Shown here: one piece after another, positions 2,454 to 32,961 of the stretch
Layout: each line of letters starts with the position of its first letter
Numbering within the stretch: position 1 is the stretch's first letter
Virus record (IMG/VR): IMGVR_UViG_3300027721_000009
Coordinates: 64,001-98,976 of that record
Strand: one strand, 5' to 3'
From: a virus
Taxonomy: Duplodnaviria > Heunggongvirae > Uroviricota > Caudoviricetes
DNA: 34,976 bases
The notes under the pieces: generated by a model
The model's database searches: none
What the model was told of the DNA's origin: nothing
What the model saw: the letters and a program-made list of their open reading frames with translations, nothing else
Program-made: the position numbers and the translations under genes

Positions 2454-3277
2454 TGATTGTTGACGACTCTGCGGGTCCGCAGAAAGCTTGGGCGAATTAT
2501 AGAATGGAACTGCGAGAAGAAATTCAGCGGCGCGAGTATCCTAGGAAACTAGCCGAAGTGGGCAGAGTCGCATTGGTCTGTATTGCGAAGGATGAAGATG
2601 ACTACATTCAGGAGTGGATTGACTATCACTTCAAGTTGGGTGTAGACGATATCTTCATCTATGAAAATGATTGGCGGTCTGGCATCTGGCAGGAACGAGT
2701 ACACACGATTCCGTTTGACGGCAAACACCGTCAGGTCTATGCGTACAACGACTTCCTGTTTCGGCGTGCGAATGATTACAAGTGGGCAATCTTCATTGAC
2801 GTTGACGAGTTCATCGTATTGAAGAACCACTCGTACATTCAGGGATTCCTGCGAGCCTATGGCAATCTCCCCGAAGGCGTGGATGCGATTGCGGTGAACT
2901 GGATGATGTTCGGTGACAATGGCGCAGCCAGTGAGGGTTCCGTAGTGGAACGATTCACACGGCGCGGCGCGATTCCCGAAAGGCACATCAAGAGCATCGT
3001 GCGGCTGAATGGCGACCGAATGATGTTGACAACGCACAACACGTTCGGCTACTGGATAGACCCGAATGGTAATATCGGAGCAGGACAGAATAATTTTGAC
3101 GGTAGCAATGATGTGATTCAGATCAATCATTACTACACTAAGACAGAGAAAGAGTTTGAACGAAAGATGAATCGCGGCAGGGCTGACTGTGGATTGCGTC
3201 GGACAAAGGACGATTTCCACCAATTCAATCAGAACGAAGTTGAAGACCTAACAGCACTCAACTTCTACAGGGGATAA
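2453..3277 (+). CDS. Glycosyltransferase, GT-A fold (GT2-like/GT92 family)
   Basis: VALVCIAKDEDDYIQEWIDYHFKLGVDDIFIYEN, DxD motif IFIDVDEFI, NWMMFGDNG, KSIVR, INHYYTK. Confidence 0.85.
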   Translation: MIVDDSAGPQKAWANYRMELREEIQRREYPRKLAEVGRVALVCIAKDEDDYIQEWIDYHFKLGVDDIFIYENDWRSGIWQERVHTIPFDGKHRQVYAYNDFLFRRANDYKWAIFIDVDEFIVLKNHSYIQGFLRAYGNLPEGVDAIAVNWMMFGDNGAASEGSVVERFTRRGAIPERHIKSIVRLNGDRMMLTTHNTFGYWIDPNGNIGAGQNNFDGSNDVIQINHYYTKTEKEFERKMNRGRADCGLRRTKDDFHQFNQNEVEDLTALNFYRG

Positions 3278-3278
3278 C

Positions 3279-3515
3279 ATGGAAACGACAGTATCAGAAG
3301 ACACTCGCTACATGAGCCGCAAGTTTCGGTTCTCTGTGGCGGCATGGATCGCAGGCACGATTGCGTATGCGACAGGGTTCTTCACCGAGGTTCCCATGAT
3401 GACGACGGACCAGTGGATTCTGTTCACGCAATGGATCGTCGGTCTGTACCTCGCAGGCAACGTCGGTGACACACTCGTTACCGGTCTAGCCAACGTATTC
3501 ACGGTGAAGTCATGA
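3279..3515 (+). CDS. Small two-TM membrane protein (holin-like)
   Basis: SRKFRFSVAAWIAGTIAYATGFF and WILFTQWIVGLYLAGNVG form two hydrophobic segments. Confidence 0.55.
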   Translation: METTVSEDTRYMSRKFRFSVAAWIAGTIAYATGFFTEVPMMTTDQWILFTQWIVGLYLAGNVGDTLVTGLANVFTVKS

Positions 3516-6855: not shown

Positions 6856-7755
6856 ATGGCATTAGATTTCAAATCTCTCAAAAAGTCCTCTGGACTCACC
6901 GAAAAACTCACCAAGGCAATCGAAGACAAGAACAAGGGTTCTTTCGCCAAGGATGACGAGCGGTTCTGGCAACCCGAAGTAGACAAGGCAGGAAACGGTT
7001 ACGCAATCGTTCGCTTGCTCGACGCTCCCGCAGTGGACGGCGAAGATGGTCTTCCGTGGGTACAGGTGTTCAACCATGGCTTCCAAGGTGGAGCGGGTTG
7101 GTACATCGAAAACTGCCCAACGACTGTGGGTGGCAAGTGTCCTGCTTGCGAACACAATAACAAACTCTGGAACTCCGGTATCGAATCCAACAAGGATATC
7201 GTCCGTAAGCAGAAGCGTCGGCTCACCTACATTTCGAACATCCTTGTCGTAGCTGACAAGAATCGTCCGGAAAACGAAGGTAAGGTCTTCCTCTGGAAGT
7301 ACGGTAAGAAGATCTTCGACAAGATTCAGGAAAAGCTGACTCCTCAGTTCGAAGACGAAACGGCAGTGAATCCGTTCGACTTCTGGAAGGGTGCTGACCT
7401 CAAGATCAAGATCCGCAACGTGGAAGGCTATCGTAACTACGATAAGTCCGAATTCGCTGACGCGGCTCCGGTCTACGAAGAGGACAAGAAGATCGAAGCA
7501 CTCTGGAAGAGCGCACACTCCCTCAAGCAGTTCGTTGCTCCGAAGGAATTCAAGACCTACGATGAACTGAGCGAGAAGCTCAATCGTGCCTTGGGTGCCG
7601 GTGGTGCGGTCGCGGCTCGCGCAGCCAAGATCGAAGACGACTCTGCACCGTGGCAGGAGCCGAAGGCAGCAGAGGCTCGCGCTCCACGCGCAACAGCCGA
7701 AGCGGTCAGTGTCGATGACGACATGGATTACTTCAACAAGCTCGCGCAAGAGTAA
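6856..7755 (+). CDS. gp32: Single-stranded DNA-binding protein gp32
   Basis: DDERFWQPEVDKAGNGYAIVRLL, HGFQG..GWYIENCPTT..KCPACE, KYGKKIFDKI, PFDFWKGAD, acidic tail DDDMDYFNKLAQE. Confidence 0.97.
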   Translation: MALDFKSLKKSSGLTEKLTKAIEDKNKGSFAKDDERFWQPEVDKAGNGYAIVRLLDAPAVDGEDGLPWVQVFNHGFQGGAGWYIENCPTTVGGKCPACEHNNKLWNSGIESNKDIVRKQKRRLTYISNILVVADKNRPENEGKVFLWKYGKKIFDKIQEKLTPQFEDETAVNPFDFWKGADLKIKIRNVEGYRNYDKSEFADAAPVYEEDKKIEALWKSAHSLKQFVAPKEFKTYDELSEKLNRALGAGGAVAARAAKIEDDSAPWQEPKAAEARAPRATAEAVSVDDDMDYFNKLAQE

Positions 7756-7784
7756 GTCCTAACCTGCGAAAGCGGGAACATGGC

Positions 7785-7812
7785 AGGGGAGGCAGGGATG
7801 CCTCCCCTTTTT
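7785..7812 (+). terminator. Rho-independent terminator after gene 32
   Basis: aggggaggca-GGGA-tgcctcccct followed by tttt. Confidence 0.9.
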
Positions 7813-7821
7813 ATTTGCGTC

Positions 7822-7828
7822 CTAAATA
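7822..7828 (+). promoter_or_regulatory. Putative late promoter CTAAATA directly upstream of gene 4
   Basis: Lies between the terminator and the ATG at 7834; the same heptamer recurs upstream of other late genes. Confidence 0.7.
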
Positions 7829-7833
7829 AGTGC

Positions 7834-8256
7834 ATGGCATACTCTGGACGCTTTACACCGCAGAACCCGCAGAAGTACCTCGGCAATCCGACAGGCATCA
7901 TCTACCGCAGCCTGTGGGAGCGTCGAGTCATGGTCTATTGTGACACCACTCCGGAAGTCCTAGAATGGTCTTCGGAAGAGATTGTGATTCCCTACGTGTC
8001 GCCTCTGGACAATCGGGTTCATAGGTACTTCCCCGACTTCTTCGTAAGAACTAAGACGGGCGCGACTATCATGGAAGTGAAGCCGCACGCCCAATCCGTA
8101 CAGCCCAAACCGGGAGCCAAGCGCACCCGCCGCTATCTACGGGAAGTCATGACGTTCGGGGTGAATGAAGCCAAGTGGAAAGCAGCCACGGAATACTGCC
8201 TAGATAGGGGATGGAAGTTCAAAGTCATCACCGAGAAGGACTTGGGGATTAAGTAA
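7834..8256 (+). CDS. gp4: Head completion nuclease gp4 (TnsA-like)
   Basis: MAYSGRFTPQNPQKYLGNPTGIIYRSLWERRVM, WSSEEIVIPY.SP.DNRVHRYFPDF, EVKP, NEAKWKAA. Confidence 0.95.
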   Translation: MAYSGRFTPQNPQKYLGNPTGIIYRSLWERRVMVYCDTTPEVLEWSSEEIVIPYVSPLDNRVHRYFPDFFVRTKTGATIMEVKPHAQSVQPKPGAKRTRRYLREVMTFGVNEAKWKAATEYCLDRGWKFKVITEKDLGIK

Positions 8257-8804
8257 TGGCAGCATCAGTATGGGAACGCCTGCGTCAGCAGATGAAGACA
8301 GCCGGAATCGCTCCTCGGACGGTAGCGGCGCGTCAGTGGTATGGAGCGGTCATCAATCGCGTCAAGATTCCCACTAATCGGTCTAATATTCTTAATGATC
8401 CCCGAAAAGCGACAGCACACGCTTTGATCGGACGGATGTACTGCTATCACTATATTCCCAAATATGAAGACACATTACCAGTATGGGATCAGTTTCCCCT
8501 TGTTTTGCCTATGGAAATTTACCCTGATGGATTCCTCGGATTGAATTTGCACTATTTGGACCCCTTCAACCGGCTCGCCCTGTTGGAACTCCTGCACGAT
8601 TTCATCACTAACACTAAATACAACGATTCGACTCGCTTTAAGTTGTCTTACAGTGTTCTCAATGGTATCAAGAAGTACGATATCATGCGACCTTGCATCA
8701 AGCGATACCTGTTGGAATACATGGAGTCGCCCATGATCTACGTCGAGCCGGATCAGTGGGAACTAGCTTGCCTGCTCCCATTCGAACGGTTCCACCACAA
8801 CTAA
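8256..8804 (+). CDS. gp2: DNA end protector protein gp2
   Basis: GRMYCYHYIPK...LPVWDQFPLV, FLGLNLHYL, RPCIKRYL, LLPFERF. Confidence 0.92.
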   Translation: MAASVWERLRQQMKTAGIAPRTVAARQWYGAVINRVKIPTNRSNILNDPRKATAHALIGRMYCYHYIPKYEDTLPVWDQFPLVLPMEIYPDGFLGLNLHYLDPFNRLALLELLHDFITNTKYNDSTRFKLSYSVLNGIKKYDIMRPCIKRYLLEYMESPMIYVEPDQWELACLLPFERFHHN

Positions 8805-8813
8805 GGTACGCCC

Positions 8814-9551
8814 ATGTTTCCAGATGCATTCCTCGCCCATCACGCCCTCCACTTCGACTTTTCCAAGGCGGCAAAGTTTGGAGTTCTAATCTTTCAGCCA
8901 TCGGGGTTGATCGCAGGCGGTCTATTGGGTGGTCTGATCGGACAGACCGCAGCCACCCGCTTCGCAATGAAACCACTCAATACGGCAGGCTTGGCATTCC
9001 AGTGCGAACAGGCTTCTCTTCCCGGCTACAGCCTCAACACGGTAGACCAGAAAATCTATGGTGCGCCGTGGAGTATCGCAGCCCAATCCGGAGACTATCC
9101 TCCACTGGAACTGACGTTCATCAGCGCAGGCGACCTATGGGAGCGCAAGTTCTTTGAGGACTGGATGGAGTTCATTGTACCAAAGGGTACAAAGCGTTCT
9201 GCGATTGATTCGTTTGTGGGCAACTTCACTGAGCAATTGGTCAATGCTAGTGGCACCCGCCGCGCAGCAGGCTCGGCAACCTACCGCAACGAGTACATTT
9301 CTACCATTCAGGTTATTCAGTTTCACGATACAGGGATCCCATCTGCTCGTTACACATTTGAAGAAGCCTATCCAGTCTCTATTGCTCCCACACCTCTCAG
9401 TTGGGGTGATGATAGCATCAATCGTGTTAACGTCACTTTCAAATACACGAATTGGGGTCGCGAATCTAATGTCGCCAGAACAATCTATGATCAATTTACT
9501 GCTCGCACAGGGGTAGTTATCGCGCCGGATCCTGCATTCGGTCCATTGTAA
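8814..9551 (+). CDS. Tail tube-like protein (gp19/gp54 family)
   Basis: FQCEQASLPG, ERKFFEDWMEFI, YRNEYISTIQVIQF, YTFEEAYPVSI...LSWG, VTFKY. Confidence 0.8.
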   Translation: MFPDAFLAHHALHFDFSKAAKFGVLIFQPSGLIAGGLLGGLIGQTAATRFAMKPLNTAGLAFQCEQASLPGYSLNTVDQKIYGAPWSIAAQSGDYPPLELTFISAGDLWERKFFEDWMEFIVPKGTKRSAIDSFVGNFTEQLVNASGTRRAAGSATYRNEYISTIQVIQFHDTGIPSARYTFEEAYPVSIAPTPLSWGDDSINRVNVTFKYTNWGRESNVARTIYDQFTARTGVVIAPDPAFGPL

Positions 9552-9566
9552 TATAAGGTGAAAAAT

Positions 9567-10292
9567 ATGGCATTGCCAAAGATTGAATACTCGGTTTATG
9601 AATTCTATGTCAAGAGCTTTGACCGCAAGCTGAAGTTCCGCCCATTTCTTGTCAAGGAAGAGAAAGTTCTCCTCATGGCAAAGGAATCGAAGGATCCAGA
9701 ATCCATCAAGCTCGCAATCAAGCAGATCATTCAGAACTGCGCATTGGAAGAGTTCGATGTGGAAACGATTCCAATGTTCGACGTTGAAATGATCTTCCTC
9801 AAGCTTCGCGCCAAGAGCGTAGGTGAGTCCGTCAAACTGGTCTTCAACTGCAAGAATGAGGTTGAAGAAGGTAAGCCATGTGACACTAATACGGATTATG
9901 TGTTGGATCTGGAAAAGGTTCAATACGAGAGTCTGGAAGGTCATGATCCAAAGATCATGATTACAGACAAGATCGGCATCAAGCTCAAGTATCCAACCCT
10001 CAAGTCTCTGGTGAATCTAGACTTTGAGGGCGACGAATTCACTACGTTCGTGGCAACCCTGCTTGCGAACATTGAGTACATCTTCGATGATGTGTCTGTG
10101 TACAAGCCAGACGACACCAGTAAGGAAGATGTATCCGAATTCCTGTTGAACCTCAAGCCGGAACACCTGATGCAAATTCGGGAGTTCTTTGAGTCTTCTC
10201 CCAAGGTCATTCTTGAAGACACTGTTACCTGTAAGAAGTGTGGATTTGTCCACAAACTGCATACGGAGAACCTACTCGATTTTTTTATTTGA
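9567..10292 (+). CDS. gp26: Baseplate hub assembly protein gp26
   Basis: MALPKI, KFRPFLVKEEKVLLMA, FDVEMIFLKLRAKSVGE, KLKYPT, C-terminal CKKC...LLDFFI. Confidence 0.92.
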   Translation: MALPKIEYSVYEFYVKSFDRKLKFRPFLVKEEKVLLMAKESKDPESIKLAIKQIIQNCALEEFDVETIPMFDVEMIFLKLRAKSVGESVKLVFNCKNEVEEGKPCDTNTDYVLDLEKVQYESLEGHDPKIMITDKIGIKLKYPTLKSLVNLDFEGDEFTTFVATLLANIEYIFDDVSVYKPDDTSKEDVSEFLLNLKPEHLMQIREFFESSPKVILEDTVTCKKCGFVHKLHTENLLDFFI

Positions 10293-10483
10293 CCTTTGGA
10301 CATGATAGCCTTGAGAATTTTCTGCGCACTATTTGGGCAATGGTGCAGCATCATAAGTGGGATTATGATGCGATTATGAATATGGTTGCGTGGGAACGAC
10401 AGGTTTTCACGATGATGACTATGGTTTACTTGAAGGAAGAGAACGAACGAATCAAACTGGAACAGCAGACTAGAAGACGCTAA
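10289..10483 (+). CDS. gp51: Baseplate hub assembly chaperone gp51 (start uncertain: TTG 10289, ATG 10340, or -1 frameshift fusion to gp26)
   Basis: HDSLENFLRTIWAMVQHHKWDYDAIMNMVAWERQVF..YLKEENER matches the gp51 pattern. Confidence 0.8.
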   Translation: MTFGHDSLENFLRTIWAMVQHHKWDYDAIMNMVAWERQVFTMMTMVYLKEENERIKLEQQTRRR

Positions 10484-12741
10484 TGACAACCAATGCAAAC
10501 CAAGTCCTATTACTGATTCAAAATCTGCCTGCCGAAGAGCAGAGCACTTTGATGAATGCCATGCGTATGTTGGAAGTCAACGCGCAGGATGAACAGTATT
10601 TCACCAACGTTACCAAGGCAATGCAGGCTGCGGGGTGGAACCCTGCCAAGCGTGCGACGGCGGGTGTCAAGGCTGCGTTGCGCAACAGGATGGAAACCAC
10701 GAAGGGTATCAATTCTCGTAAGACAGCAAGAATGATGCGTCTGTTCGGTATGCGCAAGTCGGCTGACTTCATGGACCGGTGGTTCACCAGTTCACCCAAG
10801 AAAAAGCTAAAGCCAATCAAGCTTCCAGCACAGACAAGATCCGGTGCTAGCAGTGGGTCATCCTCCACCGCAATGTCGAGCATCAAGACTCAGCTAAACG
10901 AGATTCAGATTCGGGTAATGGATATCGCTGACGATATCACCGATATCAAGACCCTACTCATGCCGAAGTTCTTCAATGCGAAGGGGCAGAAGGGAACCAA
11001 GGATGCCGGTAGTAATGAAGCGGGGATGTACAATCCACTCGCCCCTTCCGGAAGACAGTACAACAAGATTGATGATCGTACCGGAGAACTGCGCGGAGCC
11101 ACCGGAAAGAATTTCAAGAACTCGGCTGAAATGAGAGTTGCCCTTGAAACGGCTAAACTCGTTCTCAAGATCAAGCAAAAGGATGACGCTAAGGTAGAAC
11201 TCAAAAAGAAGTATGCATTCAAAGAAGAGTTGGAAACCTACGGCAAAGAGGATTCTGTAGAAGCACTGCGCGTCCATCTTGACGAACGCCTCGACAAGAT
11301 TGAGGGTATGTTTGAAAAGAGAGGTGGTCTGTTCGAAGCAATCACCAGTGCCATAGGATCGGTACTAACATCAATTACCGCGCTTCTGACACCGTTCCTC
11401 AACACAATCAAGAACATCTTCGGTGAGGTCATGAAGATCGGCAGATGGGCAATGCAGTTCGGCAGGCTTATCGGCAAGGGTCTGTATGGTCTTGTGCGCG
11501 GAATCTTCCACTCCGTCAGGCTGCTCAAGTATCTGATGAACCCTGTCGGTATGGCAGCAATGATGGCAGGAGCAGTCGTCACCGGTCTAGGCATGTTCTT
11601 TGATATGGGTATGAAGGCAGCAGCAAACAAGGCAATTGACGGTCTTGTGGGTGATGTAAGCAAGAAAATTGCAAAGGATCAGGCACAGTTTCCGGACCAC
11701 CCATACAGCGAAGACCAGAAGTACATGCAGTACAAGAAGGCTTTGGAATTGGGAGACAAGCAGGCGGCGGCTCGCGGACCTGAATATGTCTCTTATCAGA
11801 AGCAGCGTCTATTGACCAGTCCAAATCTGTCCGAAGAAGAACGAAAGTACGTCACGCGATACTACGAAGAGAAAGACGGCAACGTTGCCGGATTCCTTGA
11901 CCAGCTTGCGGCAGAAGATGGTCAGTACGAGGAATATGGTCACGGCTCATTCCCCATCGGTGAGTCTGGCGCACCTTCTGCACCGGCTGAAGGTGGAACC
12001 GGCGCACTTACGACCAACGTTCCGATTCCCGCAGGCATGTCCAAGAAACAGTGGGAAGTGTACCGCAATACCATTGGCTCCATTGAATCGGGTGGTGATT
12101 ACAAGGCTGTCGGCGGTTCGAATGATCATTACGATGGTAAGTATCAAATGGGTAAGGATGCAAAGACGGACGCGGCTAGAGTGTTAGGCATTCCAGATCC
12201 CGGTCATACGCCAGAAGCGCGGGAGGCGTTCCGCAACAATCCTGAACTACAGGAGAGAATGTTCGCGGCTTATACACAAGCCAATCACGGCTACATGCAG
12301 AACAATCCAAAATATCGCTCTATGACAAAGAATCAGCAGATTGAAACCTTGGGATATGCTCACAATCAGGGACATGGTGGAGCGAAGAATTGGCTCAACA
12401 CAGGTGAGGTTGGTGAGGATGGATTCCATACGAAAGGAACCAAATACTCCGAGGCTCTAGCCAAGAACCTCAAGAGTGTTCCGGATGAAGAGGTCTTGAT
12501 GGCTCAGAACCTAAGTCCTGCTACCACCATTCCCGGCGATAGCTTCGACAAGGAAGCCAGACAACATCAGTCCGGTGGTAAGGGTGATCAGGGTGTGACT
12601 GTGGTTAACGCACCAACCGTGAACAACGTCAACAATAACACCGTGGGTAAGCGTCCTGCTCCAAAGGCTGATGTTCTGGCTCAAGACAAGTCTCTGGTTC
12701 GCACAATCGGTCAAGATGCACAACATCCAGTGTACGCCTAA
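10483..12741 (+). CDS. Tape measure/baseplate hub protein (gp29-like) with lysozyme-like domain
   Basis: Helical, with a hydrophobic Gly/Ala-rich middle; TIGSIESGGDY..GKYQMG..AHNQG muramidase-like motifs; C-terminal VTVVNAPTVNNVNN; lies between gp51 and gp48. Confidence 0.75.
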   Translation: MTTNANQVLLLIQNLPAEEQSTLMNAMRMLEVNAQDEQYFTNVTKAMQAAGWNPAKRATAGVKAALRNRMETTKGINSRKTARMMRLFGMRKSADFMDRWFTSSPKKKLKPIKLPAQTRSGASSGSSSTAMSSIKTQLNEIQIRVMDIADDITDIKTLLMPKFFNAKGQKGTKDAGSNEAGMYNPLAPSGRQYNKIDDRTGELRGATGKNFKNSAEMRVALETAKLVLKIKQKDDAKVELKKKYAFKEELETYGKEDSVEALRVHLDERLDKIEGMFEKRGGLFEAITSAIGSVLTSITALLTPFLNTIKNIFGEVMKIGRWAMQFGRLIGKGLYGLVRGIFHSVRLLKYLMNPVGMAAMMAGAVVTGLGMFFDMGMKAAANKAIDGLVGDVSKKIAKDQAQFPDHPYSEDQKYMQYKKALELGDKQAAARGPEYVSYQKQRLLTSPNLSEEERKYVTRYYEEKDGNVAGFLDQLAAEDGQYEEYGHGSFPIGESGAPSAPAEGGTGALTTNVPIPAGMSKKQWEVYRNTIGSIESGGDYKAVGGSNDHYDGKYQMGKDAKTDAARVLGIPDPGHTPEAREAFRNNPELQERMFAAYTQANHGYMQNNPKYRSMTKNQQIETLGYAHNQGHGGAKNWLNTGEVGEDGFHTKGTKYSEALAKNLKSVPDEEVLMAQNLSPATTIPGDSFDKEARQHQSGGKGDQGVTVVNAPTVNNVNNNTVGKRPAPKADVLAQDKSLVRTIGQDAQHPVYA

Positions 12742-25796: not shown

Positions 25797-28700
25797 ATGG
25801 AATTCAACGTAGATCCGTACAATGACGACTTCGAACAGAACGCGAGAGATAACAACTATCTGAAGATCCTGTTCAAGCCGGGATTCTCGGTACAGGCTCG
25901 CGAACTGACTCAGATTCAGTCGATCCTACAGAACCAGATCAAGGCATTTGGCGACCACATCTTTCAGGATGGCTCACCTGTCATCGGCGGAAACATTTCG
26001 CTCGACAACTCTGTTACGTACATCAAGCTAGATGAAACGTACAACAACGAAGACGTAGAACTCGACCTATTCGTAGGTCAGGTCATTCTGCGCGACTCCG
26101 ACTCTCTGGTTCAAGCCAAGGTTCTAGCCTCGTACTTCCCTTCGGGCGGAACGCCTACCCTGATGGTCAAGTACATTTCGGGTGTGGACTTCTCGGACGG
26201 TGACGTATTCCGTGTCGCAGGCACCACAACCCGCGCAAAGCTGATCGACTCTTCCGCATCCGGCAAGGGTACGATTGCATCCATCAACGACGGTATCTTC
26301 TACGTTGACGGATATTTCGTCACCGTGACCCCTCAGACTGCGGTTGTCGCAGCCTACAGCCAGAACGCAAACGTAAAGATCGGTTTGGAAGTAACGGACG
26401 AAATCGTTGACTACGCGATTGATGCCACGTTGCTTGACCCTGCGCAGGACTCCTTCAATTATCAGGCTCCCGGCGCAGATCGGTATCAGTTCGGGCTGAC
26501 CCTCTCCACTCGTCCACTCGACACCGCAGTTGACGAATCGAAATACTTCGAACTCATGCGCGTAGAGAACGGCGCAGTTACGAAGCAAGTCAAGTACGCA
26601 ATCTACTCTGAAATCGAAAAGACGCTCGCACGTAGAACATTTGACGAATCGGGTGACTACACGGTTGTCCCATTCCGCGCATCGGTAGGTCCGTCGCAGG
26701 ATGCCAACAACTACATCATCAACCTTGAGCCGGGAAAGGCTTACGTCAAGGGATTTGAGTTTGAAACCATCGGTACGGTCAAGATGGAAGTCCAGAAGCC
26801 TCGCACGGACGGCATCGACACTCGTTCGCTTGTGGACATTGACTTCGATACCTCTTACGGCAATTACCTCAAGTTCAAGAACGTCTACGGCTCCAATGCC
26901 GCATCGTTCATCAATACGACCACGTATGACACGGTAGACCTTCACTGCACGCACGCAGGCAACGTCCATATCGGCAACGCAAACCGCTACGCCAACACGA
27001 AGATCGGTACAGCCAAGATTCGTGCCATCCGCCGCGACATTCCCGCACAGGACGGTGTAGCCAATGTAGACACCAACGGTGTGTTTGACTTCTACTTCAC
27101 CGACATGCGCATTCAGCCTAGAGTGCTTGTGTTGGAAGATGGATCAACCTCGACCACACTCAAGTTCCCTGATGACGCGAGCGTGCGCGAGAACGCATAT
27201 CAGAACACCACGATTACGGTTCTGCCGATTTCGTTGACTCCGTTCAGCACGGTCAACACAGCCAACGTCTACATGAACTCCACTCGCGTCAACGCAGAGT
27301 CTTCCCTTGCATCAATTCAGGTTGGACAGATCATTCGCGTTGCCGACGAAGTTCGCCAAGTCGTCAATGTATCCACCAACCACCTATTCGTCAACTCCGC
27401 GTTCACGAAGACAGTCATCGGCGGCACACCAAACGCAAACGTCCAGATTCTTCTACAGAACACATACTCTTCGAACGTCACTAACCAGACTCGTAAGATC
27501 GTATCCTACGTGGGAGGCACTCAGACTGCTACCCTCGACCGAGCATTCGATGAAGGCGCGGTTCCTGCGAACAACACCGTCATTCAGTTGAACTTCGGCG
27601 TGGGTGATCTTGAGTCTTGGGTCAAGCCAAACGCAACGTTCGGTGCAGCCAATGCATCCGCAAACATTGCCGTACAGTCCACATTGCTCGACGGTTCCAC
27701 AGAACTCTTTGAGCCATCCGACAAGCGATTGATCTATCCTCTACCTCAGAACACGATCAAGCGTGGCTCGCTCAACAACGTAGACTACAACTCTTGGAAG
27801 TATGTACAGGCAACCGGTGCTGCCGGTGTCTTCACGCTGTCTCTGGAAGCCTACGAGTCGATTCCTTGGAGCATCACTAACTCTAATCTGGAAGACAACC
27901 TGATCGTCATCGTCCGCGAAGCATCGGGAACCTACGCAAATGGCACGGTCCTCAAGCTCAATACGGGCGAAGTCACTACGGGCATCGGAAGCCTTGTGGT
28001 CACGCTGCCTGCTACTATCGGCAAGATCGACGCATACCTGATCGTCAAGCAGAACGATGCCGAAGATCGTAAGCGCACGAAGACTTTCCGTAGCAATCCT
28101 CTAATCACTACGGGACCGTTTAATGTTCCTACCGATACGGATGTTAACAACGAGCATACCGTAAACGTTCCTAACGTCGGCAACGTGGCTAAGATCAACG
28201 TAGCCAACGGGCTGATCTTCATCATCGAACCATCGGTCACGAACGTCTTCCCCGGCGACTCCATCAGTCTCTATGTTCCCGACGTAGTGAACATCCGTGC
28301 CATCCTCAAGGGTAACACCACCCATGTTGCAGATGCAACAAATTATGAGGATATCACCGACCACTTCGCAATCGACCTCGGACAGACGGAAGAAGTCTAC
28401 GAACACGCCAAGATCACGCTAAAGAGTGGATACCCTTCCCCTAATGCGCGTCTGACGATTCACTGTGACTTCTACGACCACACGTATCCCGCAGGCGCAA
28501 CCTACTTCTCGGTAGACTCGTATGATCAGACCATCTACGAAGCCGGTCAGATTCCTATCTACTTCTCCGAAGTGACGGGAACCTACTTCCTGCGTGACTG
28601 CTTGGACTTCCGTGCGACCCGTCGCATCGGTACCGCTGCCGGAACGCTCGACACTGGCATTCTGCCGGATCCTAACTCCGCAACGGAACTGAGCTTCAAC

Positions 28701-29789
28701 TACTATCTCCCTCGCATCGACAAGCTTGTTCTCTCCAAGAACAAGGAGTTCCGTGTGATCAAGGGCGTGTCGTCGCCTGCTCCAATTCCACCGGATGACT
28801 CCGAAGACGCAATGACGCTCTACAACATCTACCTTGCACCATTCTGTGCGTCCACGGAAGATATTCGCCTGCGTTACGTCGAGAACCGTCGCTACACCAT
28901 GAAGGATATCTCGCGCATTGACAAGCGTGTTCAGTCTCTTGAATACTACACTTCGCTGAACAACATTGAAGGGTTGGCACTCGCTGACCCATCCAAGTAC
29001 GCAGACGGTACGGACAAGACGAAGTACGGTATCATCGGTGAAGGCTTCAAGAACTTCAACATTGCTGACTACAAGGATCCTGACTTCAACTGCTCCATGG
29101 AAGAGGGTGAAATGGGTCCATACGTGGGCAACATGCCATTCTCGCTCAATGCATTGACTCTAACGGGTCTTAGACAGAATGATCGTACCGTGACCCTCGA
29201 CTTCACCGAAGAGGAAATGCTTGCGCAGCCAGTGACTAGCAACAAGCTTGTCTCCGTGCAGCCGTTCCTGTTCGCTCAGTTCATGGGTGACATGAAGCTT
29301 TCGCCTGAAATGGACTTTTGGGTATCCGAAGAACTCAAGCCTGATGTGCTACGCGCACCAGAGATTGACGACCGTGTACGTGAAATCTACAACTCCGAGC
29401 GTGCGGCTGAAAGAGCGCGGGAACCGGCAGCACAAGCCCAAGTTCCTACACCTACGGTTGACGCGGGTTCGATTATCTCCACGGTTCCGGGTACCAACCC
29501 ACCGGCTGCGAATACGTTCTGGAACGTTCCTGTGACTGTACCTACCGCGCCGCCATTGGTTCCTTCTCTTGCATTCCAGCTAATTACAGCAGCGAACGTG
29601 AAGAAGAACAAGAAGCGCAGTCTGTTTGACAACATCAAGCTGCTCTTCCCTGTGGTCAAGAACACGGCACCGGCACCAATTCCGCCTGCACCAAGCTCTT
29701 CGCTACCTGTTTACACTTCGCCAATTCGCATTAGCGGTGGTGGCGGCGGTGGATTCAAGGGCGGAATGACCCAAGTGAATATGGTCTAA
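25797..29789 (+). CDS. DUF4815/VrlC-like large virion protein, N-terminal part
   Basis: FNVDPYNDDF, KILFKPGFSVQARELTQIQSILQNQI, APGADRY, LARRTFDESGDY, YYLPRIDKL, RRYTMKDI, VQPFLFAQFMG. Confidence 0.85.
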   Translation: MEFNVDPYNDDFEQNARDNNYLKILFKPGFSVQARELTQIQSILQNQIKAFGDHIFQDGSPVIGGNISLDNSVTYIKLDETYNNEDVELDLFVGQVILRDSDSLVQAKVLASYFPSGGTPTLMVKYISGVDFSDGDVFRVAGTTTRAKLIDSSASGKGTIASINDGIFYVDGYFVTVTPQTAVVAAYSQNANVKIGLEVTDEIVDYAIDATLLDPAQDSFNYQAPGADRYQFGLTLSTRPLDTAVDESKYFELMRVENGAVTKQVKYAIYSEIEKTLARRTFDESGDYTVVPFRASVGPSQDANNYIINLEPGKAYVKGFEFETIGTVKMEVQKPRTDGIDTRSLVDIDFDTSYGNYLKFKNVYGSNAASFINTTTYDTVDLHCTHAGNVHIGNANRYANTKIGTAKIRAIRRDIPAQDGVANVDTNGVFDFYFTDMRIQPRVLVLEDGSTSTTLKFPDDASVRENAYQNTTITVLPISLTPFSTVNTANVYMNSTRVNAESSLASIQVGQIIRVADEVRQVVNVSTNHLFVNSAFTKTVIGGTPNANVQILLQNTYSSNVTNQTRKIVSYVGGTQTATLDRAFDEGAVPANNTVIQLNFGVGDLESWVKPNATFGAANASANIAVQSTLLDGSTELFEPSDKRLIYPLPQNTIKRGSLNNVDYNSWKYVQATGAAGVFTLSLEAYESIPWSITNSNLEDNLIVIVREASGTYANGTVLKLNTGEVTTGIGSLVVTLPATIGKIDAYLIVKQNDAEDRKRTKTFRSNPLITTGPFNVPTDTDVNNEHTVNVPNVGNVAKINVANGLIFIIEPSVTNVFPGDSISLYVPDVVNIRAILKGNTTHVADATNYEDITDHFAIDLGQTEEVYEHAKITLKSGYPSPNARLTIHCDFYDHTYPAGATYFSVDSYDQTIYEAGQIPIYFSEVTGTYFLRDCLDFRATRRIGTAAGTLDTGILPDPNSATELSFNYYLPRIDKLVLSKNKEFRVIKGVSSPAPIPPDDSEDAMTLYNIYLAPFCASTEDIRLRYVENRRYTMKDISRIDKRVQSLEYYTSLNNIEGLALADPSKYADGTDKTKYGIIGEGFKNFNIADYKDPDFNCSMEEGEMGPYVGNMPFSLNALTLTGLRQNDRTVTLDFTEEEMLAQPVTSNKLVSVQPFLFAQFMGDMKLSPEMDFWVSEELKPDVLRAPEIDDRVREIYNSERAAERAREPAAQAQVPTPTVDAGSIISTVPGTNPPAANTFWNVPVTVPTAPPLVPSLAFQLITAANVKKNKKRSLFDNIKLLFPVVKNTAPAPIPPAPSSSLPVYTSPIRISGGGGGGFKGGMTQVNMV

Positions 29790-29820: not shown

Positions 29821-32800
29821 ATGGCTGACCAAACCCAAGCAACAGTAGTAGGCGAATCCACCCTGATTCCGTACATGCGGAGACAGGACGTTGCGTTCGA
29901 TGCAAACAACCTTCGCCCTCAGAAGTTGGCTCGACTATTCGTAGATGAAATCGCAATGAATGGCTTCTCGCAGAAGGGCAACAAGATTGTCCTCAACTCC
30001 GAGAAGGTTCTGACTGTTGTTGCTAACTCGGCTTACACTGTTCAAGCCGGGGACTGGCTCTATCAGGGATCGTCCAACGCATCCCCTACCTTCTCAGCCA
30101 ACCTCAAGTCCTACGTGTCTGGAACGGGTACGCTGATCATCAATGGAATGAGCGGTAATTTCGATAGTTCAGCCAAGATTTACATCGAAAAGATCAATGG
30201 CATCACTACGTTCGAAGCGACGGTATCCAAGGAAGTCAACTCTAATACGTCTGACATTTTCGTGATGAACGAAGGTCTGATCAACGCGAACACTCGCACC
30301 TTCATGAAGTGCATCGGCTCGTCGGGTGAGAACATCCTGTATGTGTCGCAGAACTTTGTCAACATCAACGTTGCGGTCATCGGCGCAAACTCCATTGCCG
30401 CAACCACGTTCGGCGTAGGTGATCTTGTCTATCAGGCAGCTTCCGGTAGCATGTTCGATACGTCCACGTTCACTGCTAAGGTCGAATACTACGATTCATC
30501 CACCGGTTCGCTAGCACTCACTCCGTTATCCGGCACGATCAACATTGCCGCATCCCCTACTCAGACCTCGACTCTCTGGAACTCGTCTAACACTTCTTCC
30601 AAGGGTATGCGCGTCGGCGGCTACAAGCAGATCGACATTGCGACCAACAACCGTATCGCGTCTGTCACTACCGCATCCAAGAACGTGTCGGTTGTCACGT
30701 ATACGCATCACTCTGGCGCAATCGCAAACGTGGCTGCGAGCCTATCCGAGATTCACCTGAATGCGCTCGCTAACACGGTCGCAGTCGGTAACGTGATCTA
30801 TCTGACCGCAGGCACAGGCTTGGGGCAGTTCCGTCGCATCACATCTATCAGTGGCAAGACCGTCACACTACATGCCGACCTGAGTGTTCGCCCTACTTCT
30901 AATACCAAATACTCTATCGGCAACCACATTGTCGATGAGAATGGATGCCTCAACGGTATCGTCAACATTCCGGAAGAGCCTAACTTCAAGTTCAAGACCG
31001 GCGAGCGTCTGATTACAATCACCGACGTTGACTACCTTGAGTCTGATGACTACACGATGAAGGCTTCCGCACGGTTTGCCTCGGGTGGTCTGCGCAACTC
31101 CATGCAGCGTATCAACCTTACGCCTATCATGCGTCCATTGCCAGAAGTTCCTGCGGCAATTCCGGTTGTTCCGCCTCCACCAACTTCGCGTCCGATTGCG
31201 CCTGCGCCACCGGCTCCACCAGTTCCACCTACGCGCCCTGCACCAGTCCGTCCACAGAATCGTGGTAAGGATCCTGTTGCTCAGACCTTCTGGACTCCAA
31301 AGCCAGATACCAACAAGGTTTCGTATGGCGTGTTCGTGACTTCCGTAGACCTGTTCTTCGGTGCCAAGCCATCGGTCGCTCGCGGATCGTTGCAGCTTCC
31401 TATTCAGGTCAAGATTGCCGAAGTCGTCAACGGCTTCCCAACTCAGAACTACCTTGCCGAAGCTACGGTCAAGTGTAAGGACGTAAAGGTTTCCTTCTCT
31501 CCTTCGCTAGAGGATCCAGACACGATCACGAAGTTCACCTTCCGTGATCCTATCTACCTACAGCCAGACACCGAATATGCTCTGATCGTTATCTCCGATT
31601 CTCCGGAATACGAAGTCTATATCGCAGAACTCGGCGGCAACGTGCTAGGCGCAGATCCTCCTCAGAGAATCTCGGAACAGCCATATGCAGGCTCGTTCTT
31701 CCGCTCGCAGAACTCTTCGACTTGGACTCCATACCAGAACGAAGACCTCATGTTCCGCATCAACAAGGCTCGCTTCTCTGGATCGGGTTCGGCATCGTTC
31801 AACCTCAAGAACGTGCCTGACTTCGACATGAACGTAGACCGTATGTTCATCAACGCAGACAAGCTCACGTTCCCTGTCTCGGCAATTGATTTCAAGGTCA
31901 AGGGTGTCTTCAAGTCCAACTCCGCGTTCGACAACTACACCAACATCAAGCCACAAGAAATCTTCAAGTATGGCGACCTGATGGACTCTTCCAACAAGGA
32001 AACATCGGGAAGCTTCAACAATGCTCGTAAGTTGATGACCGGCAATGCCAACTCGGTACAGATCCTCACGGAACTGGTTACGACGGACCCTGACGTATCG
32101 CCAGTGTTCAACATGGAAACGCTCGCAGTCGTACCGGCTGACCATGATATCAACAATGCCGGTGTCTCCAACACCATCATTTCGATCACGAATCCCGGCG
32201 CAGGCTACAACGCAGTCATTTCTGCCGCAGATCACACAGCATCCAATCTGGTCATTCGGGGCAGTGACAGCAACAGCATGAACAATGCCGCGCAGTTGTT
32301 CCGTGAGACTTATCTGGCTAACAACTTCAACATCGGCTTCTACAACGTTCGCGTGGATACGGATGGCTATGGTTCGGGTGCAGCAGGCTTCGCAGTGGCA
32401 AACACCACCGGATCCAACACCGTCGATTACATCGTCATCACTTCCGAAGGTTCGGGCTACCTCAAGACTCCTGTTCTGGATATATCCAACGGCAACGCAG
32501 CATCGGGTGTCATTCGGGCATCGGCTGTCGCGCAGGGTGAAAACGGATCGCGTGGTGGTAACATGGCTTGCCGTTACATCACCCGCCAGATTGCTCTGGA
32601 AGATGGCTTCGAAGCAGGCGACCTCCGCGTGTTCATGGATGCCGTCCGTCCTAACGGCACCGATATCCATGTCTACTACAAGGTTCTAGGATCCGAAGAT
32701 CCCGGTCGCTTCTCCGACAAGTCTTGGGTGCTGATGCACAAGGTCAAGGATACGAAGTCGAAGGATGCCCGTCAGGTCATTGAGCTTCAATTCCGTCCAG

Positions 32801-32961
32801 ACCTTCTTGAGAATGAACTCAAGTACACCGAGAACGGTCAGCAGTACCCAATCGGCGGCAAGTTCAAATACTTCGCAGTCAAGGTCTGCCTCACCGCAGT
32901 CGATACCTCCATTGCGCCATGGATTCAGAACTTGAGAATCACGGCAACGCCAGAAGGCTAA
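29821..32961 (+). CDS. DUF4815/VrlC-like large virion protein, C-terminal part
   Basis: LIPYMRRQDV.F.A.NLRP, FKTGER, DPVAQTF, FVTSVDLFF, QPYAGSFFRSQNSSTWTPYQNEDLMFRINKARF, YITRQIALE, FKYFAVKV. Confidence 0.85.
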   Translation: MADQTQATVVGESTLIPYMRRQDVAFDANNLRPQKLARLFVDEIAMNGFSQKGNKIVLNSEKVLTVVANSAYTVQAGDWLYQGSSNASPTFSANLKSYVSGTGTLIINGMSGNFDSSAKIYIEKINGITTFEATVSKEVNSNTSDIFVMNEGLINANTRTFMKCIGSSGENILYVSQNFVNINVAVIGANSIAATTFGVGDLVYQAASGSMFDTSTFTAKVEYYDSSTGSLALTPLSGTINIAASPTQTSTLWNSSNTSSKGMRVGGYKQIDIATNNRIASVTTASKNVSVVTYTHHSGAIANVAASLSEIHLNALANTVAVGNVIYLTAGTGLGQFRRITSISGKTVTLHADLSVRPTSNTKYSIGNHIVDENGCLNGIVNIPEEPNFKFKTGERLITITDVDYLESDDYTMKASARFASGGLRNSMQRINLTPIMRPLPEVPAAIPVVPPPPTSRPIAPAPPAPPVPPTRPAPVRPQNRGKDPVAQTFWTPKPDTNKVSYGVFVTSVDLFFGAKPSVARGSLQLPIQVKIAEVVNGFPTQNYLAEATVKCKDVKVSFSPSLEDPDTITKFTFRDPIYLQPDTEYALIVISDSPEYEVYIAELGGNVLGADPPQRISEQPYAGSFFRSQNSSTWTPYQNEDLMFRINKARFSGSGSASFNLKNVPDFDMNVDRMFINADKLTFPVSAIDFKVKGVFKSNSAFDNYTNIKPQEIFKYGDLMDSSNKETSGSFNNARKLMTGNANSVQILTELVTTDPDVSPVFNMETLAVVPADHDINNAGVSNTIISITNPGAGYNAVISAADHTASNLVIRGSDSNSMNNAAQLFRETYLANNFNIGFYNVRVDTDGYGSGAAGFAVANTTGSNTVDYIVITSEGSGYLKTPVLDISNGNAASGVIRASAVAQGENGSRGGNMACRYITRQIALEDGFEAGDLRVFMDAVRPNGTDIHVYYKVLGSEDPGRFSDKSWVLMHKVKDTKSKDARQVIELQFRPDLLENELKYTENGQQYPIGGKFKYFAVKVCLTAVDTSIAPWIQNLRITATPEG

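Follow-up and report, generated by a model that had tools for sequence, protein, structure and literature searches.

Gene 26 of a divergent, uncultured, T4-like phage lineage is most probably a recoded gene for a tail/hub assembly chaperone. As judged from comparative sequence analysis, a -1 ribosomal frameshift near the end of this gene would yield a long product, gp26-51, alongside gp26 itself. The analyzed window is a stretch of 34,976 nucleotides, part of a 98,976-bp IMG/VR virus record with a completeness estimate of 55%. The features of the proposed frameshift locus are as follows.

9567..10292, + strand: gp26 homologue, the short chaperone form (TAC-N), 241 aa, from ATG 9567 to the end ...LLDFFI*; PF12322 T4_baseplate 1.8e-52 (residues 13-240), phrog_150 4e-57
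10264..10267, + strand: GGAG, a Shine-Dalgarno-like tetramer 12 nt upstream of the heptamer
10280..10286, + strand: slippery heptamer T_TTT_TTT in the gp26 frame, the proposed -1 shift site by sequence, context and conservation
10286..10483, + strand: gp51 C-terminal module in the -1 frame, 65 codons and a stop; phrog_634 'baseplate hub assembly catalyst' 7e-17
10290..10292, + strand: gp26 stop TGA, one sense codon past the heptamer, a spacing shared by 42 of 44 heptamer-bearing junctions (window counted) and by 11 of 11 clade relatives
9567..10483, + strand: predicted frameshift product gp26-51 (TAC-NC), 305 aa (240 + 65), with base 10286 read twice

The gp26-gp51 junction

The 0 frame of gp26 ends in CTC GAT TTT TTT ATT TGA, and the run of seven T's is thus read as T_TTT_TTT one sense codon ahead of the stop, as an earlier note on this DNA had observed. 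The gp51 frame lies at -1 and is open from 10238 to 10483. From 10286 it translates to YLTFGHDSLENFLRTIW...RRR over 65 codons; its earliest ATG is at 10340 (codon 18), and its stop at 10481-10483 shares bases with the ATG of the next gene (TAATG). The predicted fusion junction is ...LLDFF|YLTFGHDSLENFLR, and the peptide LLDFFYLTFGHDSLENFLR would be diagnostic of it. The coordinates, the junction peptide, the position of the first ATG and the lengths of 241 versus 305 aa had all been given correctly in the earlier note.

The match of the module to phrog_634 covers only profile positions 58-119 of 121, the same region that is matched by residues ~203-248 of T4-type gp51. A Pfam search gave no match to the module in the window, and one relative carries a weak precomputed 'PF28602 Gp51_C' label on it. 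The only longer protein with the gp51 module found by a word-based search, which is unable to reach T4 gp51, was a single 133-aa ORF.

A T7 run in 35 kb is unremarkable, with shuffled sequences averaging 4.1, and the window holds no other T7 or A7 besides 10280-10286. Because such a run is expected by chance, the argument rests on its context and conservation and not on the run itself. The 25 plus-strand genes (10,143 codons) contain 12 in-frame X_XXY_YYZ heptamers. Among these, only the one at 10280-10286 both adjoins a stop and opens a long -1 extension, which runs for 65 codons and finishes exactly at the next gene.

Conservation in the clade of the window phage

Positions 9000-11500 had no blastn match among GenBank phages, and therefore nucleotide-level relatives were taken from metagenomes. 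The identity of gp26 to any GenBank phage is at most 39%. Closer relatives in a large protein collection show 45-89% identity and lengths of 229-257 aa, save one 158-aa fragment. No in-frame fusion of ~300 aa was found among the best 120 gp26 homologues; thus, the gp26 stop is maintained and the short form is kept. The clade set comprises 11 relatives with gp26 50-89% identical to that of the window, namely the DNA of 10 relatives from the protein collection and one metagenome contig (61% identity).

All 11 relatives keep T_TTT_TT(T/C), with T_TTT_TTC in one, in the same register, with a single sense codon between it and the stop. They also share the -1 offset and the peptide YLTFGHD[ST]LENF. 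Variation is seen at flanking synonymous sites, in the final sense codon, which is ATT, ATC or ACC, and in the stop, which is either TGA or TAA. The conservation of the -1 peptide together with synonymous change indicates that it is under selection.

These data bear on the highly improbable explanation that the layout is an artefact or a product of decay, with the assembly having dropped one T from a true in-frame 305-aa fusion or the downstream frame being an unexpressed remnant. One extra T would indeed join the frames, and homopolymers are error-prone. However, independent assemblies and isolates show the same stop-containing layout in 56 distinct gp26 genes, the best 120 homologues contain no such fusion, and the -1 peptide is conserved with synonymous change over the whole range from 50% to 89% gp26 identity.

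The module has no conserved start codon in the aligned sequences. In the window, the -1 frame contains a TTG at 10289, which overlaps the gp26 stop as TTGA, and a GTG at 10238. The module might then be a separate small protein, re-initiated at the TTG by TTGA coupling or started at the GTG, with no fusion product. We consider this unlikely. The TTG at 10289 is unique to the window: in all 11 relatives it is replaced by CTA or CTG, which preserve the leucine and not the start codon. Initiation at this TTG had been named in the earlier note as the observation that would refute a frameshift, and it fails the comparative test. Moreover, no Shine-Dalgarno sequence is present 5-10 nt upstream of the TTG, the preceding 19 nt being ACCTACTCGATTTTTTTAT. 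The GTG (at -42) exists as a consequence of the conserved CKKC codons of gp26, and in 5 of the 11 relatives -1 stops separate it from the module. In 10 of the 11 relatives, the first ATG, GTG or TTG occurs only 12-18 codons into the module, and initiation there would delete the conserved YLTFGHDSLENF. The earlier note had pointed out that a start at ATG 10340 would cut off the conserved HxSLENF segment. Gene callers left the ~190-nt stretch after gp26 empty in most relatives.

Junctions across T4-like phages

A wider survey included 46 distinct junctions: the window, 40 from IMG/VR and JGI/ENA metagenomes, and five from GenBank isolates. These sequences are related, and the counts overstate their independence. 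The heptamer T_TTT_TT(C/T) is present in the gp26 frame at 44 of the 46 junctions; the two without it belong to a T4-type phage and Pseudomonas phage Cygsa01. Exactly one sense codon separates heptamer and stop in 42 junctions. Aeromonas phage 65, Stenotrophomonas phage YB07 and Rhizobium phage IG49, which are outside the Kyanoviridae-like group, have T_TTT_TTC. In several contigs a TAA of the -1 frame stands immediately before the run, so that a shift is possible only on the heptamer or the next codon. The comparison of junctions that the earlier note had proposed as a check thus finds the heptamer and the -1 offset in all relatives with adjacent gp26 and gp51, with the exception of one ATG-bearing clade.

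The same protein could arise in another way. Homopolymeric T/A runs promote polymerase slippage, as in bacterial IS elements and Thermus dnaX. If RNA polymerase added one U on the T7, a subset of mRNAs would carry gp26 and the gp51 module in frame, with the same product as from the -1 ribosomal shift, and the run at 10280-10286 is the sole 7-mer T/A homopolymer in the window. Against this very unlikely origin, most junctions have six T's followed by C (41 of the 44 with a heptamer), which is short for efficient polymerase slippage. Furthermore, the run always stands in the X_XXY_YYZ register with its last base free, as is needed by ribosomal and not by polymerase slippage. The register disfavours polymerase slippage, although the FF codons also fix it.

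Codon choice around the run also favours a frameshift. In 56 distinct heptamer-bearing gp26 genes, the codon ahead of the run is always NNT (AAT, AGT, TCT, GAT or GGT), and the amino acid at this position varies among N, S, D and G. The first Phe of the FF pair is encoded by TTT in 56 of 56 genes. The background elsewhere in the same genes is 0.63 for T-ending codons and 0.67 for TTT, giving a chance of ~0.42 per independent lineage for NNT and TTT together. The NNT and TTT choices are left unexplained by the model of a separate gp51 gene. The strength of this argument is limited because the genes are related, the 56 forming 21 clusters at 80% identity and 9 at 60%. In addition, F239 and F240 are invariant in gp26 homologues, and since FF is conserved as protein, part of the T run is due to coding constraint.

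In several GenBank genomes, short ORFs annotated as 'gp51' or hypothetical start from internal ATGs and omit the conserved N-terminus of the module (extracted-locus numbering).

3250-3393: Melnitz-2
3262-3396: Pelagibacter phage Mosig
2792-2872: Aeromonas phage 65
2681-2821: Rhizobium phage IG49

In Melnitz-2 and Mosig, the conserved [AL]SH[ND]SLEN[YF]F is found upstream of the annotated truncated ORFs, with no start codon before it. The four ORFs are likely mis-annotated parts of the frameshift product.

A clade without the heptamer

The heptamer is absent from Pseudomonas phage Cygsa01, Vibrio phages K361 and YC, and Erwinia phage phiEa2809, which have ATT, CTT or GCT followed by TTC instead. 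Each of these phages has a single PF12322 gene, and in the tree they form one clade with 99/99 support. In Cygsa01, K361 and YC, the gp51 module starts at an ATG that forms part of a TAATG overlap. In phiEa2809 there is neither a heptamer nor an obvious start, and the module is unannotated. All four phages (T4-like/Ackermannviridae) retain NNT TTC, a minimal one-tRNA slip motif.

The alternation between heptamer and start codon supports a frameshift where the start is missing. At the same time, some phages, in which ATG in TAATG occurs without the heptamer, evidently manage with the gp51 module as a free peptide, and this speaks for a separate small protein. Mainly because a free module is viable elsewhere and the window has a TTG, we rate the frameshift in the window as very likely and no higher.

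PF12322 copy number and the T4-type arrangement

The number of PF12322 genes differs between the two types of phages.

Sf-FR1, Melnitz-2, Mosig, Aeromonas 65 and IG49 (complete genomes, heptamer present): 1 each
APCEc01 (T4-type): 2
The 99-kb record of the window (55% complete): 1

In APCEc01, genes 26 and 51 are divergent. Its gp51 (250 aa) contains a full PF12322 domain over residues 1-201 (4.6e-59) together with the phrog_634 module, matched over 147-248, and matches gp26 directly by BLASTP (2e-10). The FF pair of T4-type gp26 is encoded by TTC TTT, which is non-slippery. The predicted gp26-51 fusion has the architecture of T4-type gp51, that is, a gp26-like domain followed by the gp51 module. 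The gp51-type module itself is present in the window, and its attachment to the gp26-like domain depends on the proposed frameshift.

One tentative scenario, which we regard as possible rather than probable, is that the frameshift is ancestral for the long chaperone across the T4 superfamily and was replaced twice. The first replacement would be duplication with in-frame fusion, as in T4 26/51. The second would be loss of the heptamer with gain of an ATG, resulting in a free peptide, as in phages of the Ackermannviridae, Vibrio K361 and Pseudomonas Cygsa01 types. In the tree of gp26-type domains the T4 paralogues sit on long branches, and the duplication was therefore not dated from it. If this scenario is true, a tail assembly chaperone can do without a covalent bond between its 'G' domain and its 'T' module.

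Neighbouring genes and the identity of gp26

The genes around the junction, together with two ORFs near the start of the window, are as follows.

185-541: gp33-like late transcription regulator ORF, overlapping the ORF 480-1322 by ~60 nt
480-1322: PhoH-like gene, listed as an ORF starting at TTG
6856-7755: gp32
7780-8256: gp4, head-completion homologue, phrog_218 1e-57
8256-8804: gp2
8814..9551, + strand: gp54-like tube-fold protein of the baseplate tail-tube initiator type, 245 aa, immediately upstream of gp26; PF23849 Phage_TTP_2 4.2e-08, phrog_45 tail tube 4.8e-28
10483..12741, + strand: 752-aa protein in the gp29/tape-measure position; phrog_5867 6.2e-51 on residues 517-665
Downstream of 12741: gp48, gp53, gp5, gp25, gp6, gp7 and gp8 homologues

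The PhoH start is probably further downstream than the listed TTG. The gp4 homologue also matches the N-terminal domain of TnsA-like endonucleases (PF08722, 6e-22). Two adjacent proteins at 25797-29789 (1330 aa) and 29821-32961 (1046 aa) both match phrog_358 and phrog_877, families of unknown function, over different profile parts. They may be a giant structural protein that was split or duplicated, beside the genes for the baseplate wedge.

The one recognisable domain of the 752-aa protein, at residues 517-665, is peptidoglycan-hydrolase-like, and in relatives the corresponding segment is labelled SLT or Glyco_hydro_19. Outside this domain the protein had no family match among Pfam and PHROG profiles. 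From its position, size and hydrophobic centre, we infer that it is a tape measure. The gene order proposed in the earlier note (tube, gp26, gp51, tape measure) holds, with a tube-fold gene upstream and a downstream protein that is tape-measure-like by these three features.

An AlphaFold model of gp26, built from 44 sequences, has pLDDT 85.6. Foldseek found no match to the model in PDB, and searching PDB sequences with a profile brought no usable match either. Exhaustive alignment of the model to 48,161 chains ranked three structures at the top.

3fgx_B: uncharacterised B. stearothermophilus protein, Z 6.8
2ob9_B: HK97 tail assembly chaperone, Z 6.2
3klu_A: B. subtilis prophage protein YqbN, Z 6.0

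The next match had Z 4.2. The top matches involve only residues 1-94 of gp26, the N-terminal third, at 7-16% identity and with Z below the clearly meaningful level. The identities of the matched proteins fit the reading of gp26 as a G/GT-type protein, at modest scores. The view of gp26 and gp51 as equivalents of G and T, put forward in the earlier note, thus draws support from the gene order, the T4-type gp51 architecture and these modest matches (Z 6.0-6.8).

Cysteines 95, 105, 222 and 225 of gp26 are invariant in 44 homologues and form two pairs (C...C and CKKC), which suggests a zinc site tying the middle of the protein to its C-terminal end. T4-type gp26 and gp51 have the same cysteine pairs.

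Proposed mechanism

In the proposed mechanism, most ribosomes would stop at the TGA at 10290 and produce gp26, the short form of 241 aa. A minority would slip back by one base with two tRNA-Phe on UUU UUU (10281-10286), re-pairing at 10280-10285. The slipped ribosomes would read UAU UUG ACC... in the -1 frame and add 65 residues, yielding gp26-51 of 305 aa. The long form would end at 10483, the start of the tape-measure-like gene. The short and long forms would presumably act on the tape-measure/hub protein as G and GT do in lambda.

Both the slippage itself and its rate are predictions of this analysis. Since the site lacks a downstream RNA structure, the expected rate is a few per cent, similar to that of lambda G/GT. 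Folding gave no stimulatory hairpin or pseudoknot downstream of the site in the window (single-sequence z -1.7) or in the 10-sequence consensus (-1.95 kcal/mol over 10 relatives). The lambda G/GT frameshift also works without downstream RNA structure.

Other elements may contribute. The GGAG at 10264-10267 may stimulate the slip, as in dnaX. A purine-rich GGAG, GAGG or AAGG is found at the same spacing in 12 of 12 clade members; the tetramer also encodes a conserved Glu, and therefore a stimulatory role and a coding constraint are inseparable here. It can be conjectured that the 0-frame stop one codon downstream is stimulatory too, and both the stop and the GGAG also have coding explanations.

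Relation to published work and to annotation

The earlier note took T4 to be usually cited as lacking the G/GT system. This view is out of date since the paper by Vladimirov, Gautam and Davidson (Virology 2022; 566:9-15), which is reported to identify T4 gp26 and gp51 as the tail assembly chaperones of T4-like phages. According to papers that cite it, the study describes short and long forms, the solution with two genes, and TAC-N genes of T4-like phages with poly-T slippery sites. The PRFect paper cites this work. A 2025 paper cites it for poly-T slippery sequences as -1 signals already known from the TAC-N genes of T4-like phages (PMC12846349). Both the equivalence of gp26/gp51 to G/GT and the poly-T frameshift sites in T4 relatives thus appear to be already in print. 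The site in the window appears to be an unannotated new instance of a described frameshift and not a new principle.

If the frameshift operates as proposed, the ~190-nt 'gap' that follows gp26 in the window phage and in many relatives codes for protein, and the appropriate annotation is a ribosomal-slippage join in which 9567-10286 is followed by 10286-10483. The small 'gp51' ORFs from internal ATGs in Melnitz-2, Mosig, Aeromonas 65 and IG49 would then be truncated artefacts. A deep uncultured lineage would be added to the evidence that T4-like phages follow the general rule of short and long tail chaperones.

Comparison with known systems

Three types of systems can be compared with the gp26-gp51 locus. 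For the first, the HK97 chaperone (2ob9), YqbN (3klu) and 3fgx, the modest structural match to gp26 is confined to residues 1-94.

The second is gpG/gpGT of phage lambda. As in the window, two overlapping frames lie between tube-fold and tape-measure-like genes, the heptamer is near the end of the first frame, the second frame is without its own start, and no RNA structure is needed. No sequence similarity between the two loci is detectable; gp26 has double the size of gpG and carries the four-Cys motif. The heptamers also differ, being U_UUU_UUU in the window and G_GGA_AAG in lambda. The lambda frameshift system is said to go back to Levin, Hendrix and Casjens in 1993, and Xu, Hendrix and Duda reportedly found in 2004 that the -1 frameshift of tail assembly chaperone genes is conserved. 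Xu, Hendrix and Duda are said to have reported that in lambda the binding partner of the short form is the tape measure and that of the extension is the tube protein.

The third system is gp26/gp51 of T4, which act in hub assembly (PMC3004832). The window shares with it the PF12322 family of gp26, the phrog_634 module of gp51 and, in the predicted fusion, the domain order. In T4-type phages the long form is a second, divergently transcribed gene, whereas in the window there is one gene, from which the long form would have to be made by recoding.
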